Counted from the stretch's first letter, positions 31,263-62,518 are shown. The stretch is DNA of 64,000 nt from an uncultured Phycisphaeraceae bacterium (GCA_964614075.1 CAZTJZ010000003.1:4408-68407); one strand, 5' to 3'. Made by a program: numbers and translations. The notes: generated by a model from the sequence alone, not told the origin.

Positions 31263-31335
31263 AGGCGCGAGCGGATCAAATCAGTGACGAACCGCTTGGG
31301 ATGGCAGGACGCAATCGCACTCCGCCGTAAACACC

Positions 31336-31500
31336 GATGGCCCCGGTACCTACCGAGGCCATCTGGTCTTCCAAGTCGGGGTGACAGGACGCCAATAGAA
31401 CTCTTCTTGGAGGGCGTTAGGGTCTGGGAGCCACGGATATGCCGTTTTCTGAGCGGAAACGCGGTATTGGGGGAATGAGCGATCAGCCGCAAAGTCGACA
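31336..31500. repeat. copy c1 of the hairpin + tRNA-Pro-3'-end + arm module (left boundary of ars islet)
   Basis: Hairpin GATGGCCCCGG-TACCTA-CCGAGGCCATC (31336-31363). AAGTCGGGGTGACAGGA (31373-31389) is identical 17/17 to 33537-33553. The arm is CGCCAATAGAACTCTTCTTGGAGGGCGTTAGGGTCTGGGAGCC... Confidence 0.8.
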
Positions 31501-33526: not shown

Positions 33527-33538
33527 ACTCTGAACAAA

Positions 33539-33613
<75 letters not shown>

Positions 33614-33738
33614 CGGTGAGCGTCACTATAGGCTCCCCATGCAGTCGCCCGCGCGGCATCCCGTTACGAGCTCTGTTGAGCGCCCCGCCACGCACCCAGG
33701 GCCACACCCCGCTCCGCGCCCCGGCCCGTGCCCTGCCG

Positions 33739-49851: not shown

Positions 49852-49912
49852 GGCCACAGGCGGGACGCCCGCGCCACAAGGAAAAGGAGAGCACGCGGGG
49901 GACACTTGTGCC
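49852..49912. repeat. intergenic REP doublet (same family as the hairpins flanking the valS insert)
   Basis: GGCCACAGGCGGGACGCCCGCGCC (49852-49875) and GAGCACGCGGGGGACACTTGTGCC (49889-49912), each followed by a CACAAGGAAAAGG / CACGAGGAAGGGGAAGAG purine tail. Compare 60074-60111. Confidence 0.6.
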
Positions 49913-50589: not shown

Positions 50590-51201
50590 CTATCTCCGCC
50601 GTCGCGCGGCGAGCAGTCCGCCGAGTCCAAGCACCGCGATCGCGCCGGGGGCAGGGATCGGCCGCGACCACAGCAGGGCTTCGTTGGTGCCTGTTGCGTT
50701 GTTGAAGCCCCAACCAGAGATGTACATGTTCACGCCGTCGCTGGAGATGCCTCGCGCGAAGCTATCCCGGAATTCGGCCGGCAGAACAGTGTGGAGATCA
50801 ACCCACGAGCCCGCCGTACCGGCCCACAGACTTGCACGTTGCACTCCGTCCACGAACGCCGTCCCGGCCTGTTGCCCGCCGTCTGCGGCGTAGCCGAAGG
50901 ACAGCGCCGCTCCCCCTGGGTTCAGGTTAGTGACGCTCCACTGCGCGTGCGCGATGGGCACGAGCGCCGACTGCAGCACCGCCACAACGACCAGCCCCAC
51001 CGACGGCACCCAACGAACGTGAGAAGGACTGACAGAATGAGCAACCTCGACAACTGAACGCGTTGTGGTGATCACTTGAGAGCTCCTGCGAACGCCGCGT
51101 CTTGCTGACGGTGTTCGAACGGATGGGAAGCTCTCTCCTCTGCCGTGCTGAGATTCTACGCGAAACCCAGCGAAACTACAATACTCAACGGTGTCGGACA
51201 A
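50590..51201 (-). CDS. PEP-CTERM domain protein with HAF-like repeat
   Basis: C-terminus IPAPGAIAVLGLGGLLAARRRR* is a textbook PEP-CTERM sorting tail. Signal-like VGLVVVAVLQSALVPIAHAQ suggests the real start is GTG 51009 (139 aa) rather than 51201. Confidence 0.7.
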   Translation of the reverse strand: MSDTVEYCSFAGFRVESQHGRGESFPSVRTPSARRGVRRSSQVITTTRSVVEVAHSVSPSHVRWVPSVGLVVVAVLQSALVPIAHAQWSVTNLNPGGAALSFGYAADGGQQAGTAFVDGVQRASLWAGTAGSWVDLHTVLPAEFRDSFARGISSDGVNMYISGWGFNNATGTNEALLWSRPIPAPGAIAVLGLGGLLAARRRR

Positions 51202-52989: not shown

Positions 52990-53140
52990 CGCCCGCAAGC
53001 CATGACTGCGGGCGTTTCAATTCGTCAATCGGGGTGACAGAACACCAATAGAACTTTTCTTGGAGGGCGTTAGGGTGTGGGAAGCCGGTATTCGCCATTT
53101 GGTGAGCGCCAGCGCGGTTTGACTCCCGTTCCGGTAGAAA
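52990..53140. repeat. copy c3 of the hairpin + tRNA-Pro-3'-end + arm module
   Basis: Hairpin CGCCCGCA-AGCCATGAC-TGCGGGCG (52990-53014), core TCGGGGTGACAGAA (53029-53042), arm CACCAATAGAACTTTTCTTGGAGGGCGTTAGGGTGTGGGAAGCC..GAGCGCCAGCGCGGTTTG. Confidence 0.8.
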
Positions 53141-56896: not shown

Positions 56897-57880
56897 CTAC
56901 TTCCCCAGCCGCTCGCTCAGCTTCTTCCCCGCCTCGCTCCCCAGCATCGCGCTGCGCTGGGCGAACCGGCGCGCCTCGTCCAGCTTCCCGGCCCGCTCCA
57001 TCCACACCGCCGCGTCGAGCGCGAGCTGCGCATCGGTCGGCTCGCTCTCGGCGTGCTTGGCGTACAACCCCGCCGCGTCCTCCGGGCGCCGCAGCAGCCC
57101 GTAGCACTCTCCCATCACCGCCAGCACCCCGGGCTCGCGCTGCTCGCTCATCGAGAGCCCGACCAGCCCCTGCAACGCCTCCTCCGCCCGCCCCAGCCGT
57201 TTCTTCGCCCGCGCCTCCACCAGCCGCCACACCACGTTGTACGGGTCGAGCGTCCGGGCCTTGGCGACGTGCTGGACCGCCATCTCCGCGTGGTTCTCCC
57301 GCAGCGCGATCTCGCCCAGGGTTCCCCACACAATCGCCTTCTCGGGATCGAGGTTCGCCGCCAGAAGCAGGTTCTTCTTCGCGTCGGTCAGCTTGTCGAG
57401 CTTGAGCTGCGTCTGCGCGAGGTAGATCGGGATCTGCGCATCGTTGGGGCTCAGCCCCTGGGCGGCGGCGTAGTGCTCCTCGGCCCGGTCGGGCTTCCCC
57501 GCCGAGCTCGCCACCGTCCCCGCGTCGAACTGCAGCTTCGCGTCGGGCTTGCCCAGCGCGATCGCCTTCTCATACATCGGGTATGCCTCGCCGGGCCGCC
57601 GCTGGGCCACCAGCAGCTCGCCATAGCTCAGACACAGCCGCGCCTCCTGCGGATACTTCGCGATCGCCTCTTTCAAGATCGCCTCGGCCTTGGCCGGCTC
57701 AAGCTGCTTGACGTACACCTCCGCCGCGTTCAGGATCGCGTCGATGTTCTCCGCGCTCCCCGTCCCGGGCTTAGCCTCCGCGGGCGAGGGCGAGAGCGCT
57801 CCTCGAACGACCAGGACCAGCGCCCCCGCGAGCGCGAGGACCAGCACCACCACCACCGCCTTGAACACGCCGTTCTTCAT
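56897..57880 (-). CDS. TPR repeat protein, membrane-anchored
   Basis: 327 aa from ATG 57880. N-terminal TM KAVVVVLVLALAGALVLVV, then repeated 34-aa A/L/Y-rich TPR-like units. Confidence 0.75.
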   Translation of the reverse strand: MKNGVFKAVVVVLVLALAGALVLVVRGALSPSPAEAKPGTGSAENIDAILNAAEVYVKQLEPAKAEAILKEAIAKYPQEARLCLSYGELLVAQRRPGEAYPMYEKAIALGKPDAKLQFDAGTVASSAGKPDRAEEHYAAAQGLSPNDAQIPIYLAQTQLKLDKLTDAKKNLLLAANLDPEKAIVWGTLGEIALRENHAEMAVQHVAKARTLDPYNVVWRLVEARAKKRLGRAEEALQGLVGLSMSEQREPGVLAVMGECYGLLRRPEDAAGLYAKHAESEPTDAQLALDAAVWMERAGKLDEARRFAQRSAMLGSEAGKKLSERLGK

Positions 57881-57960
57881 CGCCTTCGCACCCTCCGTCG
57901 CCCGAGTCCCGTCCGCGCTCCGCCGGGCGTCCCCACGGGCAAAGCGTACACTCCCCCGCC

Positions 57961-60900
57961 ATGTCGTCATCTATGTCGTCATCTTCGGCACTTCCCGATC
58001 AGAACCCCCCCGCGGCGCCTCACGCCCCCATCCCGATGGACGCCCCCACAGACGCCCCTGCCGAGCTCTCCAAGACCTACAAGCCCGCCGAGCACGAGTC
58101 ACGAATCTGGGATCGCTGGATCGCTTCGAACGCCTTCCACGCCGACCCGCAGCGTGTTCTCCAGGGCGCCGTCCGTCCCTACACCATCGTCATCCCCCCG
58201 CCCAACGTCACCGACCGCCTGCACCTCGGGCACGCCCTCAACAACACCCTCCAGGACATCCTCGCCCGCGCCCACCGCATGATGGGCTACGAGACCCTCT
58301 GGATGCCCGGCACCGACCACGCGGGGATCGCCACGCAGGCCGTCGTCGAGCGTCGGGTGATGAAGGACGAGAAGAAACGCCGCACCGATTTCACCCGCGA
58401 GGCCTTCGTCGCCAAAATCCAGGCCTTCAAGGACGAGTACGAGGCGGTCATCACGGGCCAGCTCCAGAAGATGGGCTGCTCGTGCGACTGGGAACGCCAG
58501 CGCTTCACCATGGACGACCAGTGCGCCAAGGCCGTGCGCGAGGCCTTCTTCCGCCTCTTCAGGGGCGGCATGATCTACCGCGGGAAGCGCCTGGTAAACT
58601 GGGACCCCGTGCTCCAGACCGCGGTCGCCGACGATGAGTGCTACGACGAGGAGATCGACGGCGCGTTCTATTACCTCCGCTACCCGCTCGTCCACGCCGG
58701 CGCGCGAGAGCGCGGCGTGGAGCACGACGACAAAGTCCAGGACGCGCAGCCTGTGTCCTGGGGAGAGCTCGCACGCCGCGGCTACGAGGGCGCCGGTCAC
58801 CACCCCGCCGACGCCCCGGCCTGGATCACCGTCGCCACCACCCGCCCCGAGACCTACCTGGGCGACTCCGCCGTCGCCATCAACCCCCACGACCCCCGTG
58901 CCAAGGCCCTCAAGGGGCTCAGCGTCGAGCTTCCCCTCGTGGGGCGCGTCATCCCGATCGTGGAAGACAGCTACGTCGTGCTCCCCGAGCGCTACGCACG
59001 CACCGACGATGAAAAAAACGACCCCAAGGCCGCCGTGGCCACCGGGTTCCTCAAGGTCACGCCCGCGCACGACCAGAACGACTACGAGCTCGGACGACGC
59101 CACAACCTCGCGGTGATCAACGTGATGGCCCCGGACGGCTCCATCAGCGACACGCACGGCTGGAGCGACCCTGGCGACGCCCACCTCTTCGTCGGCAAGA
59201 AACGCGAGGACGCGCGCAAGCTCGTCATCAAAGAGTTCCAGGCCCGCACCGTCGGGAACGAGCCGCTGTTTGAGGGGAGCAAGCCCCACCGCCACAGCGT
59301 CAAGCACAGCGACCGCAGCAAGGCGATCATCGAGCCCTACCTCAGCGACCAGTGGTACGTGAAGGTCACCGACCCGCGCCTGGCAAAGGCGGCGAACCAG
59401 GCGCTCGTCGCGGAGCAGCGCTCTGCCTCTTCTCCCTCTCGTGGCACAGGCGTCCCGCCTGTGCCTTCCCATCCTCCTTTGCCTCAAGGCACGGGTCATC
59501 CGCCGGTGCCCCACCCTTCCACGCTCCACAAGCCGCTCAGCGCACAATTCACATCCTCCATCCGCAATCTCCCGCACTGGCAGCAGGGAGGCCAGACCTA
59601 TTTCATCACGTTCCGTCTCGCACACGGCACGCTCTCAGAAGCGGAGCGGACCCTTGTCCTCCACGCCTGTCGCCACTGGGATGCCGAACGTCTCGAGCTC
59701 CACGCGGCGTGCGTCATGCCCGACCACGTCCACCTCATCCTGTCGCCGTTCGAAAAGTCACCCGGGCAGTGGTACACGCTCGCGGAGATCCTCCACAGCC
59801 TCAAGTCGTACTCGGCCCACGAGATGACCAAGCAGCACGGGCGAAACGCACCCGTGTGGCAGGACGAGTCCTTCGACCGGATCCTCCGCCCCGGAGAGTT
59901 CCAGGAAACCCTCGCGTACCTCCAGCACAACCCCGTGAACGCCGGCCTGGCACGGGCATGGTCGGAGTACCCGTGGACCTGGGTTCCCGGAGCGTCGCTC
60001 GACGGGCAGTGCCGATTCCCCGAGAGATGGCGCGGCACGACACGGGCTGATGGGCAAGAAGAGAAAAACGAAGAACACAGGCGGGACGCCTGTGCCACAA
60101 GAGAAGACAACACGCTCGCCTTCCACCCCGCCCGCTACGCGAAGACCTACGAGCAGTGGCACGACCAGATCCGCGACTGGTGCATCTCCAGGCAGCTCTG
60201 GTGGGGGCATCGAATCCCGGTGTGGCATATCTCCCCCGTAACAAAGTTCGGGCCATCGGATGAGAACGATGGCTCCGCTGAATATGAAGAATTTTCATCG
60301 AGCGTGGCAATGGCAGCATGGAAATTGTGCGACGACTGCGACGACACTCCCTGCTTTGTGAAGCACGATTCGATCGTCCAAACATGCCATCTTGTGGCCA
60401 GTAGCGCGACATCAGAGGCCATCTTCACTGAACTCGCATCGTGGCTCAGCTCGGGTGCGAGCGAAGCATCCATTCCATCGAAGTGGCTGAAGAACCCGAA
60501 GCAGCTCGCCGCCGCGAAGACACTCGGCCGGCTTGTCGCAAAGTGCGAGCGCGACCCCGACGTCCTCGACACCTGGTTCTCCTCCGCACTCTGGCCCATG
60601 TCCACGCTCGGCTGGCCCGACGACACCGACCTCCTCAAGGCCTTCAACCCCACCTCCACCCTCTGCACCGCCCGAGAGATCATCACCCTCTGGGTCTCGC
60701 GCATGGTCATGTTCAACCGCTACTTCCTGGGCGAGGGCCAGGGCAAGGGGCCTGTCCCCTTCCGCGACGTCTTCATCCACGCGGTCATCCAGGACGGCGA
60801 AGGCCGAAAGATGTCCAAGAGCCTGGGCAACGGCGTTGATCCTCTGGACATCATCGCCACGCACGGCGCCGACGCGATGCGCTTCACGCTCTGCCACATG

Positions 60901-61941
60901 ACCACCCAGACCCAGGACGTCCGCCTCCCGGTCGTCAAGGACCCCGCCACGGGGAAGAACACCAGCCCCAAGTTCGATCTGGGACGCAACTTCGCCAACA
61001 AGCTCTGGAACGCCGCACGATTCGCGCTGGGAATCCTGGGCGGCTCGCCCGCGCCCGCCCAGGGCCAAACCACGCTCGCCGACCGATGGATGCTCTCGCG
61101 TCTGGCCTCGGCGGCGACGGGGATCGACGACTCGCTCGCACGCTTCGAGTTCTCCGAGTACGCCGCCAGCGTCTACACCCTGCTCTGGAACGACTTCTGC
61201 GACTGGTACCTGGAGGCCATCAAGCCCACCGCCGCCACGAACCCGGCGCAGCGTGCCGTCCTCGCCGCCACGCTCGAATCGATCGTCCGTCTCCTCCACC
61301 CCGTCATGCCCTTCGTCACCGAGGCGATCGACGAGAAGCTCCGCGCCCTCCCCGCCGCCCGCGTCCCGGGTGTGCGCCTCGAGCGCCCGCGCGGGCGAGA
61401 CCTGCTCTGCCTCGCGGCGTGGCCGGCCATCGACCCCTCCCTCCGCGACCCGGCCGCCGAGGCCGACTTCGAGCGCCTGCGCGCCTTCGTGACCGCCATC
61501 CGCGACGTGCGCGCCAAGCACCAGGTGAAGCCCTCGCGTCGCATCACGCTCCATCTCTCGACGGATGCCAAGCGCACGCCCCCGTCGTTCACCCCCGAGC
61601 AGCTCGCCCTGGCGATGACGCTCGCGGGGCTGGAGCGCGTGGAGACCGCCCTCCCCCCGCCGGGCTCGACCCTGTTCACGTTCGAGTCGCACGAGTGGGC
61701 GCTCAGCAACCTCGCCGACGCCGCCCAGGCCGGCGCCGCCGAAGACGCCGAACGCCAGCGCTTGACGCGCCAGATCGCCGATCTCGAAAAGTCCGCCGCA
61801 ACCCTCGAGGCCCGCCTCGCCAACCCGGGCTACGCCGACAAGGCCCCGCCCAAGATGGTCCAGCAGACTCGCGACCAGCTCGCGAAGATCACCGGGGATC
61901 TCGACGCGGCCCGCGCCGCCCTCGCCAAGCTCGCCCCCTGA
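57961..61941 (+). CDS. valS: valine--tRNA ligase carrying a 231-codon in-frame HUH-transposase insertion
   Basis: HIGH-region PPPNVTDRLHLGHAL, DWCISRQLWWGHRIP, DVLDTWFSSALWP, KMSKS, and a C-terminal coiled coil. 1326 aa versus roughly 880-950 aa for typical bacterial ValRS. Confidence 0.9.
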   Translation: MSSSMSSSSALPDQNPPAAPHAPIPMDAPTDAPAELSKTYKPAEHESRIWDRWIASNAFHADPQRVLQGAVRPYTIVIPPPNVTDRLHLGHALNNTLQDILARAHRMMGYETLWMPGTDHAGIATQAVVERRVMKDEKKRRTDFTREAFVAKIQAFKDEYEAVITGQLQKMGCSCDWERQRFTMDDQCAKAVREAFFRLFRGGMIYRGKRLVNWDPVLQTAVADDECYDEEIDGAFYYLRYPLVHAGARERGVEHDDKVQDAQPVSWGELARRGYEGAGHHPADAPAWITVATTRPETYLGDSAVAINPHDPRAKALKGLSVELPLVGRVIPIVEDSYVVLPERYARTDDEKNDPKAAVATGFLKVTPAHDQNDYELGRRHNLAVINVMAPDGSISDTHGWSDPGDAHLFVGKKREDARKLVIKEFQARTVGNEPLFEGSKPHRHSVKHSDRSKAIIEPYLSDQWYVKVTDPRLAKAANQALVAEQRSASSPSRGTGVPPVPSHPPLPQGTGHPPVPHPSTLHKPLSAQFTSSIRNLPHWQQGGQTYFITFRLAHGTLSEAERTLVLHACRHWDAERLELHAACVMPDHVHLILSPFEKSPGQWYTLAEILHSLKSYSAHEMTKQHGRNAPVWQDESFDRILRPGEFQETLAYLQHNPVNAGLARAWSEYPWTWVPGASLDGQCRFPERWRGTTRADGQEEKNEEHRRDACATREDNTLAFHPARYAKTYEQWHDQIRDWCISRQLWWGHRIPVWHISPVTKFGPSDENDGSAEYEEFSSSVAMAAWKLCDDCDDTPCFVKHDSIVQTCHLVASSATSEAIFTELASWLSSGASEASIPSKWLKNPKQLAAAKTLGRLVAKCERDPDVLDTWFSSALWPMSTLGWPDDTDLLKAFNPTSTLCTAREIITLWVSRMVMFNRYFLGEGQGKGPVPFRDVFIHAVIQDGEGRKMSKSLGNGVDPLDIIATHGADAMRFTLCHMTTQTQDVRLPVVKDPATGKNTSPKFDLGRNFANKLWNAARFALGILGGSPAPAQGQTTLADRWMLSRLASAATGIDDSLARFEFSEYAASVYTLLWNDFCDWYLEAIKPTAATNPAQRAVLAATLESIVRLLHPVMPFVTEAIDEKLRALPAARVPGVRLERPRGRDLLCLAAWPAIDPSLRDPAAEADFERLRAFVTAIRDVRAKHQVKPSRRITLHLSTDAKRTPPSFTPEQLALAMTLAGLERVETALPPPGSTLFTFESHEWALSNLADAAQAGAAEDAERQRLTRQIADLEKSAATLEARLANPGYADKAPPKMVQQTRDQLAKITGDLDAARAALAKLAP
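59443..59465. repeat. REP hairpin (left end of valS insert)
   Basis: Perfect palindrome GGCACAGGCG-TCC-CGCCTGTGCC. Confidence 0.85.
59488..59510. repeat. second, degenerate REP hairpin
   Basis: GGCACGGGTCATCCGCCGGTGCC, an imperfect palindrome of the same family. Confidence 0.5.
60074..60096. repeat. REP hairpin (right end of valS insert, inverted orientation)
   Basis: AACACAGGCGGGACGCCTGTGCC is the reverse complement of the left REP, with 2 mismatches at the outer end. Confidence 0.8.
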
Positions 61942-61951
61942 ACGGTTCGGT

Positions 61952-62518
61952 TCAGCCGCGCGCCCCGTGGCGTTTCAGGTCCTCGGGCGTGTCGATGTCC
62001 AGCCCCGCCGCCTCGCACGCGATGGCGCGAACGCCCTCGCGCGAGAGCAGATTCTTCGCGCCGCGGTCCTCACGGATCGAGCGGAGCTCCTCGAACCACG
62101 CCCTCGAGAAGCACGCCGGCACGCCCACCACCCCCGCGTACCGCGTCGCGCACGCCCCCGCCCCTCGCCCCACCGCCTCGCCCAACGCCGCGAAGTGCGC
62201 CGCGGGCACGCACGGCTGGTCCGCAAGCGCGATCACCAGCGCCTCCGCCCCGACGCTCGCGTCCACCGCCGCCCGGATCGAGGTCGACAGCCCCTCCGCC
62301 CACGCCGGGTTCTCCACCACCTCCACACCGTGCGGCACCAGCCCACGCAGCGCCTCCGCCTCACACCCCAGCACCACCACCACACGCTCCGCCCCGGACC
62401 GCACCCCCGCCCGCACCGCGTGCGCAATCAGCGGCAGCCCGCGAAACTCCATCGCGAGCTTCATCGCCCCCATCCGCGTCGAGCCCCCCGCGCCCAGCAC
62501 CGCGTGCACGATCCTCAC
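61952..62518 (-). CDS. MobA/MocA-like nucleotidyltransferase (molybdenum cofactor cytidylyl/guanylyltransferase family)
   Basis: 188 aa from GTG 62518, which overlaps the XdhC stop (GTGA). AVLGAGGSTRMG, LADQPCV. Confidence 0.75.
   Translation of the reverse strand: MRIVHAVLGAGGSTRMGAMKLAMEFRGLPLIAHAVRAGVRSGAERVVVVLGCEAEALRGLVPHGVEVVENPAWAEGLSTSIRAAVDASVGAEALVIALADQPCVPAAHFAALGEAVGRGAGACATRYAGVVGVPACFSRAWFEELRSIREDRGAKNLLSREGVRAIACEAAGLDIDTPEDLKRHGARG

Follow-up and report, generated by a model that had tools for sequence, protein, structure and literature searches.

The 64,000-nucleotide stretch of DNA analysed here (hereafter the window) comes from an uncultured Phycisphaeraceae bacterium (GCA_964614075.1 CAZTJZ010000003.1:4408-68407), and its valS gene, which codes for valyl-tRNA synthetase (ValRS), carries a second gene in its interior. 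This passenger is a complete module of a REP-associated tyrosine transposase (RAYT), an enzyme of the Y1/HUH type, bordered by inverted copies of a repetitive extragenic palindrome (REP). It is inserted in frame and the catalytic motifs of both proteins are intact, which bears out the core claim of an earlier note on this DNA. It appears probable that a complete REPtron, i.e., a REP-RAYT-REP unit, is nested in a permissive and hypervariable surface loop of valS, which would provide both an expression site and a safe harbour. The best-supported account of its history is that selection maintains the module, with exchange and loss taking place at the level of populations. RAYTs are textbook examples of 'domesticated' transposases, single-copy and vertically inherited, and their benefit and persistence are debated. 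RAYTs translated only inside essential proteins would supply a concrete mechanism of persistence.

The longest valS open reading frame (ORF), nested module included, extends over 57961..61941 on the plus strand and encodes 1326 aa. Translation possibly starts at M26 (58036), where the identical NCBI protein (P0121, 1301 aa; P-numbers designate the proteins and L-numbers the loci compared) and the gene of a conspecific strain (L001) both begin, and the initial 25 codons (57961-58035, MSSSMSSSSALPDQNPPAAPHAPIP) may not be translated. The host gene has all the attributes of a valine--tRNA ligase. Its product reaches 929.7 bits with the NCBIfam equivalog PRK05729 (NF004349, cutoff 704) and contains the Pfam families tRNA-synt_1, Anticodon_1 and Val_tRNA-synt_C, with the anticodon-binding domain and the C-terminal arm, and motif searches retrieved HIGH in the form HLGH (58222-58233) as well as KMSKS (60808-60822), both on the plus strand. 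The ratio of nonsynonymous to synonymous substitution rates (dN/dS) of the ValRS core is 0.12-0.22 among the pairs compared. There is a single valS and a single RAYT within the window.

The insert occupies 59419..60111 on the plus strand (693 nt, codons 487-717), its 231 codons being distributed between a left arm, the RAYT core and a right arm. ORF listing and translation confirmed, as had been claimed, that it is free of stop codons and keeps the valS frame, between the flanks ...ANQALVAEQ and TLAFHPARY...; it has neither a start nor a stop codon of its own. The ValRS profile is split between positions about 205 and 209 of the Pfam tRNA-synt_1 model. The counterpart of the site in the T. thermophilus ValRS (1GAX) is ...VLKGLRRGDIAFVPERW... 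(...GLRRGDIAF..., LRRGD), a tight turn of 2-4 residues. The earlier note had placed a short turn at this spot in E. coli ValRS, and such a turn was found in the T. thermophilus enzyme, which was checked in its stead. In a fused ValRS, peptides spanning the junctions would include ...ALVAEQRSASSPSR....

The RAYT (TnpA-REP) core domain, at 59563..60030 on the plus strand, was delineated by profiles, AlphaFold2 (AF2) and Foldseek. Its motifs, all on the plus strand, are RNLPHW (59563-59580), YFITFRL (59599-59619), PDHVH (59719-59733, residues 587-591, with HUH at 59725-59733) and LAYLQHNP (59911-59934), which includes the codon of the catalytic Tyr653 (59917-59919). The HUH motif and the catalytic tyrosine of the Yxxx(N/Q)P helix are both intact. 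The insert scores 26.7 bits with Pfam PF01797 (Y1_Tnp), above the gathering cutoff of 23, and its match to NCBIfam NF047646 (REP_Tyr_transpos) spans profile positions 4-145/146 (E 1.2e-21). More than 800 homologs with 40-56% identity are RAYTs, and those at 45-50% identity carry RAYT names in NCBI and IMG. A sequence search of the insert against the PDB gave no matches, and a fold search was required. The AF2 prediction made with an alignment displays a confident core (residues about 55-190), with a predicted local distance difference test score (pLDDT) of 93-98, and two low-confidence arms. The best PDB match of this predicted core in Foldseek is 4er8_A (E 4.6e-9, target-normalised template modelling score 0.67), followed by IS200, ISDra2 and IS608 TnpA structures; this structure shows the E. 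coli RAYT in complex with a REP hairpin (PDB 4ER8). Motif positions, profile and predicted fold all agree with the Y1/RAYT assignment of the earlier note, which had named a profile search without such similarity as a means of refuting it. A ValRS model of 1200 residues shows the RAYT as a separately folded domain next to a well-folded ValRS body, with linkers (residues 465-496 and 669-689) of pLDDT below 50. The insert is thus predicted to fold apart from the synthetase on two disordered tethers, which supports the initial suggestion of a tolerated surface-loop insertion.

Both ends of the module are made of one REP in opposite orientations. The left REP (59441..59465, plus strand, translated as GTGVPPVP) combines a 5'-GTGG foot (59441-59444) with a perfect 10+3+10 palindrome, GGCACAGGCG-TCC-CGCCTGTGCC (59443-59465); with its foot, this strand reads tCTC-GTGG-CACAGGCG-TCC-CGCCTGTG. 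The right REP is the inverted copy (60076..60098, minus strand, translated as HRRDACAT), an 8+3+8 hairpin (60076-60094) whose GTGG foot appears as CCAC at 60095-60098. Both ends had been described as perfect 23-nt palindromes, which is correct on the left; the right copy stops short of this length because its outer GG is replaced by AA. The GTGG feet, which had escaped the earlier description, point outward on each terminal hairpin, and the terminal inverted repeat covers 28 nt with 96% complementarity (59436-59463 / 60076-60103). Folding as single-stranded DNA (ssDNA) yields -13.4 kcal/mol for the left hairpin (z -7.2) and -9.6 kcal/mol for the right one (z -5.6), and none of 200 shuffles was as stable in either case. 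The two arms encoded around these REPs are predicted to be disordered. The left one is a REP-encoded low-complexity tether (59419..59562, plus strand, pLDDT below 55), and the right one consists of a purine-rich tail and a REP-encoded tether (60031..60111, plus strand, pLDDT below 50). A second left REP copy (59486..59511, plus strand, translated as GTGHPPVP) is 72% complementary to the first; the degenerate hairpin proposed at 59488-59510 can be retained as a decayed REP but not as a stable hairpin, its ssDNA stability being not significant (z -1.2). Outside valS, the doublet at 49853..49912 (minus strand, with a purine-rich tail on the plus strand) is of the same REP type as the module, as had been noticed, but both copies are degenerate, the first one with 3 mismatches (z -2.0) and the second one decayed. 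When up to 3 mismatches are allowed, the 23-mer palindrome occurs 4 times in the window, for 0 expected.

Occupancy of the loop among relatives was analysed in two sets, namely the 120 ValRS proteins nearest to that of the window, which without exception come from metagenome-assembled genomes (MAGs) of Phycisphaerales or Phycisphaerae, and a genome-collection scan of 80 valS loci, 73 of which were scorable at the site, making 76 with the window, L001 and a further relative, L002. The RAYT module is borne by 60 of the 120 proteins, always at one site, between ANxALVxEQ and xLxFHPARY, and it occupies 20 of the 76 scorable loci. The anchors SDQW... and DWCISRQ are separated by either about 45-75 aa or 243-333 aa, a bimodal distribution. 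Unoccupied loops are low-complexity stretches of 2-31 aa (R[TS]S...GDG), and most occupied loops start with RS/RT and end with GDG/TDG, so that the module lies within a pre-existing variable linker. The occupied form is the consensus of more than 60 independent assemblies, and the nested architecture is also seen in the closed 3.36-Mb chromosome CP064987.1.

In about 15 occupied loci, both ends consist of one inverted REP whose GTGG feet point outward and whose loop is TCC or TTCCA. From locus to locus, the stems vary with fully compensatory changes (CACAGGCG, GGCGGGC, CACCGCTCT, GGCAGGTG, CCCGCCTC, CACTGGTC, GGCAGGTT), as expected of REP-RAYT co-evolution, which indicates that the hairpins are maintained. 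The earlier note had considered that relatives sharing the domain without REPs would turn the module into an old, lineage-specific ValRS domain. The shared domain and site were indeed found, in so many relatives that the module is an old lineage-wide resident rather than a recent hit in this genome. The relatives have the REPs too, which change together with the RAYT, and this makes the module a REPtron all the same, as opposed to a simple ValRS domain specific to the lineage. In some loci the REPs are multiplied within the arms (three on the left in L006, 2+2 in L003, 3+3 in L047), and the arms of P0135 contain 4-5 tandem EEHRRDACATSSG repeats; these multiplied REPs give ValRS tens of extra REP-encoded residues.

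Palindromic elements find a landing site in the valS loop. Perfect hairpins are found in 10 of 56 empty or intermediate loops. The empty loop of L033 retains an intact solo GTGG-footed REP and that of L059 an inverted footed REP, those of L010 and L012 contain two unrelated palindromes (CCCACGCGCGAGCGTGGG; CCTCCGCTCGCGCGGAGG), and that of L048 a repeated CCAGATGCCGCATCTGG. Two other inserts were encountered at this place. L078 (DAOMNQ010000028.1) has a different Y1 transposase in frame in the same loop, with the motifs NHVH ... RYVLDEQ and a Pfam Y1_Tnp score of 33.4 bits; it resembles 'class 3' of PMC6006769 and ends in inverted repeats of its own, each about 30 nt long (AACGAGCCGCGACCGTTAGGGAGCGGTTC). 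The valS loop of L074 (DASZWV010000156.1) contains an unrelated insert of ~115 aa without Pfam family, flanked by a duplicated 15-aa junction (ATDAGDGSMRF[FY]PAR) and located downstream of an array of TKTPLAG-like short peptide repeats.

Selection was estimated by the Nei-Gojobori method in two pairs with a vertically inherited module, L083/L003 and L084/L085; the pairs from the genome collection were too divergent for dN/dS (at most 75% aa identity), and closer pairs were used. In L083/L003, dN/dS is 0.181 for the ValRS core (dS 0.206), 0.164 for the RAYT core (dS 0.136) and 0.98 for the REP-encoded arms (dS 0.059). The corresponding values in L084/L085 are 0.122 (dS 0.369), 0.190 (dS 0.186) and 1.35 (dS 0.081). 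The nested RAYT cores are under purifying selection comparable to that of the ValRS core. Both HUH histidines are conserved in 67/67 ValRS-nested RAYTs and the catalytic tyrosine in 66/67, in copies that are only 40-60% identical to each other, and 188 free-standing homologs are alike in this respect. A dN/dS of about 1 combined with a low dS shows the arms to be conserved as nucleotide sequence, without codon-position pattern. The G+C content at third codon positions (GC3) in the window agrees with this, since it is 0.91-0.95 in valS and 0.85 in the RAYT core, and falls to 0.61 in the left arm and 0.56 in the right arm. Selection acts on the RAYT as a protein read in the valS frame, and on the arms as DNA.

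The closest comparisons reveal how the module turns over. The window, L001 and L002 have a common neighbourhood (LacI, TPR protein, valS, NTP_transf_3, XdhC), which identifies their valS genes as orthologous. L001 is 98.7% identical to the window outside the cassettes. Binned identity and junction sequences delimit an allelic RAYT cassette at about 59396..60120 (plus strand), with identities of 0.49-0.80 per 60-nt bin over 59401-60120 and of 0.97-1.00 in the flanks. The two RAYT tracts are about 62% identical, and their proteins 61%. The L001 REP also differs (GGGCGGGC-TTCCA; peptides GAGFQPA/GLEARPT). Between the two strains, dS amounts to 1.03 in the RAYT and 0.036 in the core, which argues for allele replacement rather than divergence in place. 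The swapped tract passes the REP feet by about 45 nt on the left and about 22 nt on the right; this overshoot is better explained by recombination in the conserved flanking codons than by REP-to-REP transposition, which is therefore disfavoured for this swap. An alignment with close orthologues had been proposed in order to define the empty site, which was found in L002 (P0123, 88% core identity to the window), where the loop still contains CTCGTGGCACGG, a match to the foot and stem start of the window's left REP.

On a broader scale, RAYT and core identities are uncoupled (Spearman 0.08, 1770 pairs), and in 6 of the 10 pairs with core identity of at least 90% the RAYTs are merely 42-69% identical. 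Fitch parsimony on the 120-tip core tree requires at least 21 occupancy changes, compared with about 40 (minimum 32) for shuffled labels, and one clade of 27 tips is occupied throughout. A single ancient insertion followed by pure vertical descent is ruled out by these occupancy changes and by the lack of correlation. Conversely, the nearest neighbour of a ValRS-nested RAYT is another ValRS-nested RAYT in 66/67 cases, which rules out repeated capture of random free-standing RAYTs by valS. The ValRS-nested RAYTs are a valS-adapted lineage moving among valS alleles. In L078, a different Y1 family entered the loop independently.

A second hypervariable cassette was observed in valS, at 60226-60540 of the window (codons about 756-860), between WWGHRIPVW and DVLDTWFSS. 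It maps to the Zn-hairpin segment 418-440 of 1GAX and is unrelated in sequence between the window and L001; in two further close pairs it is swapped as well, with aa identities of 0.32-0.34 for a core at 0.93-0.94. Its GC content is 0.56 and its GC3 0.64 (0.91-0.95 for valS), it has no Pfam match, and AF2 gives it a pLDDT of 45-65. P0146, a ValRS whose RAYT site is empty, has a variant that shares 47% identity with the one in the window, and this cassette varies independently of the RAYT cassette. A single recombination tract encompassing both was rejected, as they are separated by about 105 bp of 100% identity and the variants of the second cassette pair with different lineages. Other repeats of the window also have matches in L001. 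Dispersed 50-95-nt repeats of the window (31319-31465, 33535-33619, 53027-53077) match several places of L001 (2689-2782, 3373-3462, 4510-4646) at 78-92% and form a distinct repeat family. A ~130-nt unit at 50795-50927 has three consecutive matches in L001 (612-744, 741-873, 870-1003; 71-75% identity), where it appears to be tandemly repeated.

Nested RAYTs are not restricted to ValRS. An exhaustive HMMER search with the insert retrieved 7054 homologs. The best 150 cluster representatives were inspected, about one third of which are proteins of 400-1340 aa with an internal RAYT, and 50 of them were scanned against Pfam. The hosts identified are ValRS, Ham1/RdgB, PurH, AlaRS (at two sites), DnaK, PriA, RecG and BirA, as well as several DNA and SAM methyltransferases, a Type ISP restriction enzyme, a hydantoinase, a glycyl-radical enzyme and an Fe-S protein (nested RAYTs of other hosts: P0012, P0018, P0028, P0108, P0241-P0384; L086, L087). 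In P0247, a class I aminoacyl-tRNA synthetase (aaRS)-like host, the RAYT lies at a different position, with flanks unlike those of ValRS. Source names place some hosts in Verrucomicrobiota, so nested RAYTs span the Planctomycetes-Verrucomicrobia-Chlamydiae (PVC) bacteria. The copies nested in RdgB encode the same REP peptides as in ValRS (GTGV[PS]PV ... HRRDACAT) and have footed inverted REPs in their DNA. They are interleaved with the ValRS-nested ones, and the PurH-nested RAYTs group together (7/7 nearest neighbours). Free-standing relatives were also identified. The RAYT of L089 (Paludisphaera soli) has two 27-nt GTGG-footed arms that are 100% complementary and 594 nt apart. The called ORF of L088 begins in the left REP and ends with a TAA stop in the loop of the right REP, and REP doublets with the same outward feet are found nearby. 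The matching layout identifies the window module as a complete REPtron, and a free-standing form that is coding almost from REP to REP makes in-frame nesting easy.

These nested genes are presently mis-named in annotation. RAYT-bearing ValRS proteins are called 'class I tRNA ligase family protein' in NCBI, or even 'REP-associated tyrosine transposase' (P0169), and most named insert-free orthologues are 'valine--tRNA ligase'. The affected proteins include P0128, P0141, P0149, P0155, P0169, P0200, P0214 and P0216. An automated name 'DnaK/REP element-mobilizing transposase RayT' exists, meaning that the domain has been noticed by pipelines.

According to the interpretation favoured here, the RAYT would be made only within the ValRS polypeptide. 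Being made only there, it would borrow the promoter, the start codon and the indispensability of an essential gene, a niche that would resemble that of an intein, minus splicing. The nested RAYT may still be an active ssDNA endonuclease/ligase on its cognate REPs. The initial entry into the loop could have occurred by REPIN-like transposition of a REP-RAYT-REP unit. Later spread and replacement between lineages would proceed by homologous recombination via the conserved valS codons beside the loop, which fits the window/L001 tract, and loss by deletion would leave solo REPs or low-complexity scars. Slightly favoured, and with less assurance than the nested REPtron in valS itself, is the wider proposal that nested REPtrons have a distinct lifestyle, namely that of passengers which, throughout the PVC bacteria, ride in frame in the permissive loops of essential genes (valS, rdgB, purH, alaS, dnaK, priA, recG). 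They would be expressed only as host fusions and spread by recombination through conserved host codons, with an intein-like niche without protein splicing. Imprecise deletion would be penalised because it would break an essential host gene.

Several observations weigh against this picture. The insert scores 77.1 bits with NF047646, 3 short of the equivalog cutoff of 80. Cognate REPs are sparse, with one degenerate doublet outside valS in 64 kb, and a generic scan for GTGG-footed hairpins in the window counted 25, within the 17-38 of shuffles and hence without enrichment, so that a high-copy REP population is not supported. Allele exchange by recombination is suggested by tract boundaries in a single conspecific pair, and a long-standing allelic polymorphism with homogenised flanks would give the identical window/L001 pattern. 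The trees are simple neighbour-joining/identity analyses of MAG-derived proteins. Finally, translation of the fusion and activity of the RAYT are deduced from sequence.

Among the other explanations, exaptation fares best, although it is unlikely. The RAYT fold would have been recruited for a function of ValRS or of the cell (ssDNA/RNA binding, regulation, moonlighting nuclease), with the hairpins persisting as cis-regulatory structures of mRNA or DNA instead of transposon ends. Purifying selection equal to that of the ValRS core, retention of the catalytic residues, the codon adaptation of the RAYT core (GC3 0.85) and the fully occupied 27-tip clade are all in line with this, as is the treatment of RAYTs as domesticated, vertically inherited genes (PMC5581495). 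However, the loop is empty in L002/P0123 at 88% core identity, there have been at least 21 gains or losses, conspecific strains possess different RAYT alleles, and another Y1 family resides in the same loop of L078. The same module is moreover found in unrelated hosts (RdgB, PurH, DnaK, PriA...) and free-standing, so any function would not be specific to ValRS. For these reasons the exapted ValRS domain envisaged earlier is disfavoured.

A very unlikely alternative is that the module is taken out before ValRS acts, through seamless IS608-like ssDNA excision in a fraction of the population, RNA splicing, or protein splicing or proteolysis. Seamless excision is well established for the Y1 transposases of the IS200/IS605 family, the disordered arms are possibly accessible to proteases, and solo-REP loops indicate precise RAYT loss on an evolutionary timescale. 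However, the inverted arrangement of the ends puts the active REP strand, which is the one recognised by the RAYT, on opposite strands at the left and at the right, and the complement strand (iREP) is not bound in vitro (PMC8266576). As REPs are palindromic, the left and right ones are also direct repeats, and a REP-REP deletion is conceivable; in the window it would remove 631 nt, out of frame, an outcome expected to be lethal. Frameshift protection was rejected as a general rule, since the REP-REP spacing is a multiple of 3 in 6 loci, whereas division by 3 leaves 1 in 7 loci and 2 in a single one. An Rfam scan of 57500-62200 gave 0 matches at E up to 1, and thus no intron or IStron; the Pfam scan of the 1326-aa protein retrieved no intein/Hint family, and the boundaries are variable and of low complexity. 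The consensus of the more than 60 occupied assemblies also speaks against removal. The IS608-like seamless excision mentioned in the earlier note is thus unsupported.

It is most improbable that the module is a neutral passenger, i.e., a tolerated and decaying past insertion that remains open only since a stop or a frameshift would kill valS. Disordered tethers in a permissive loop would be compatible with such a fate, and the second left REP and the 49.85-kb doublet have decayed, in a window where REPs are sparse. The RAYT dN/dS of 0.16-0.19 nevertheless largely refutes it, and stop-codon avoidance alone could preserve neither the nearly invariant catalytic residues nor the hairpins, whose terminal copies are intact and change in step with the RAYT across about 15 loci. 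An assembly error or a disrupted additional valS, which the evident metagenomic origin of the source genome might have suggested, is effectively refuted by the identical protein P0121, by dozens of independent assemblies including the closed CP064987.1, by the neighbourhood shared with the empty orthologue and by the strong purifying selection on the host gene.

Purifying selection, co-evolving REPs and swaps between conspecific strains make the nested RAYTs a natural system to probe RAYT function. Defined loops of ValRS, DnaK, AlaRS and PriA accommodate a foreign enzyme of 150 aa attached by disordered tethers. Such permissive loops are useful for protein engineering, and they represent a route for new domains into old proteins.

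REPtrons, including the guiding role of the GT[AG]G foot and their cleavage at CT, have already been described (PMC3333891, PMC3479197, PMC8266576), and so have lone REPs in frame in genes including those of tRNA synthetases (PMC3733652) and REPs inside RAYT genes (PMC6006769). Full-text searches found no description, in the literature searched, of a whole RAYT module nested in frame in a host gene, which apparently is new there; a published RAYT census regarded long proteins of this sort as fusions or annotation errors and left them out (PMC6006769). The window module has much in common with the REPtrons of E. coli, Stenotrophomonas and Marinomonas (PMC3333891, PMC3479197, PMC8266576, PMC6006769), namely the Y1 HUH fold with its HUH and Tyr motifs, inverted flanking REP hairpins with a 5' GT[AG]G foot, and a RAYT paired with its own REP variant. 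Group-3 REPs have the same 8-10-bp perfect stem and 3-nt loop, and the layout of the free-standing Planctomycetota relatives is identical. In contrast, canonical REPtrons are intergenic and have their own start and stop codons, whereas the window module has neither and lies in frame inside an essential gene, with a cognate REP population that is apparently small (64 kb). RAYTs have been described as mostly vertically inherited (PMC5581495), unlike the nested alleles, which are exchanged between close strains.

The in-frame intragenic palindromes, i.e., Rickettsia palindromic elements (RPE) and the GTAG/CGTC REPs of Opitutus and others (PMC3733652), are likewise tolerated as loop residues in housekeeping genes, including those of tRNA synthetases and repair proteins, and the valS arms and solo-REP 'empty' loops fit them exactly. 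These insertions provide a peptide of 20-80 aa derived from non-coding DNA, whereas the valS module brings a whole translated transposase gene. Mere REP/RPE decoration was therefore rejected, since the unit includes a 155-aa transposase domain under purifying selection. The IS200/IS605 elements and IStrons encode a Y1 transposase homologous to that of the module, and a guide tetranucleotide lies at the foot of their terminal hairpins as well. The module differs from them by the lack of TnpB and of a group I intron, and its ends are inverted copies of one hairpin, in contrast with the distinct left-end and right-end hairpins that IS200/IS605 elements have on one strand. An IS200/IS605 identity was rejected on account of these ends, of the lack of any further ORF in the module and of its single copy in the window, and a group I/II intron or IStron on account of the Rfam result. 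An intein identity was also discarded, in view of the variable low-complexity boundaries, the HUH fold and the absence of a Hint family in the Pfam scan. The valS insert has no splicing motifs, is presumably retained in the mature protein, lies in a permissive variable loop instead of a conserved active-site motif, and encodes an ssDNA HUH transposase instead of a homing endonuclease. What it shares with inteins and homing-endonuclease elements is the sporadic occurrence of a selfish in-frame coding insert in housekeeping genes (aaRS, DnaK, helicases), with divergent alleles at one site, discordance between insert and host, and both empty and occupied alleles in close relatives.

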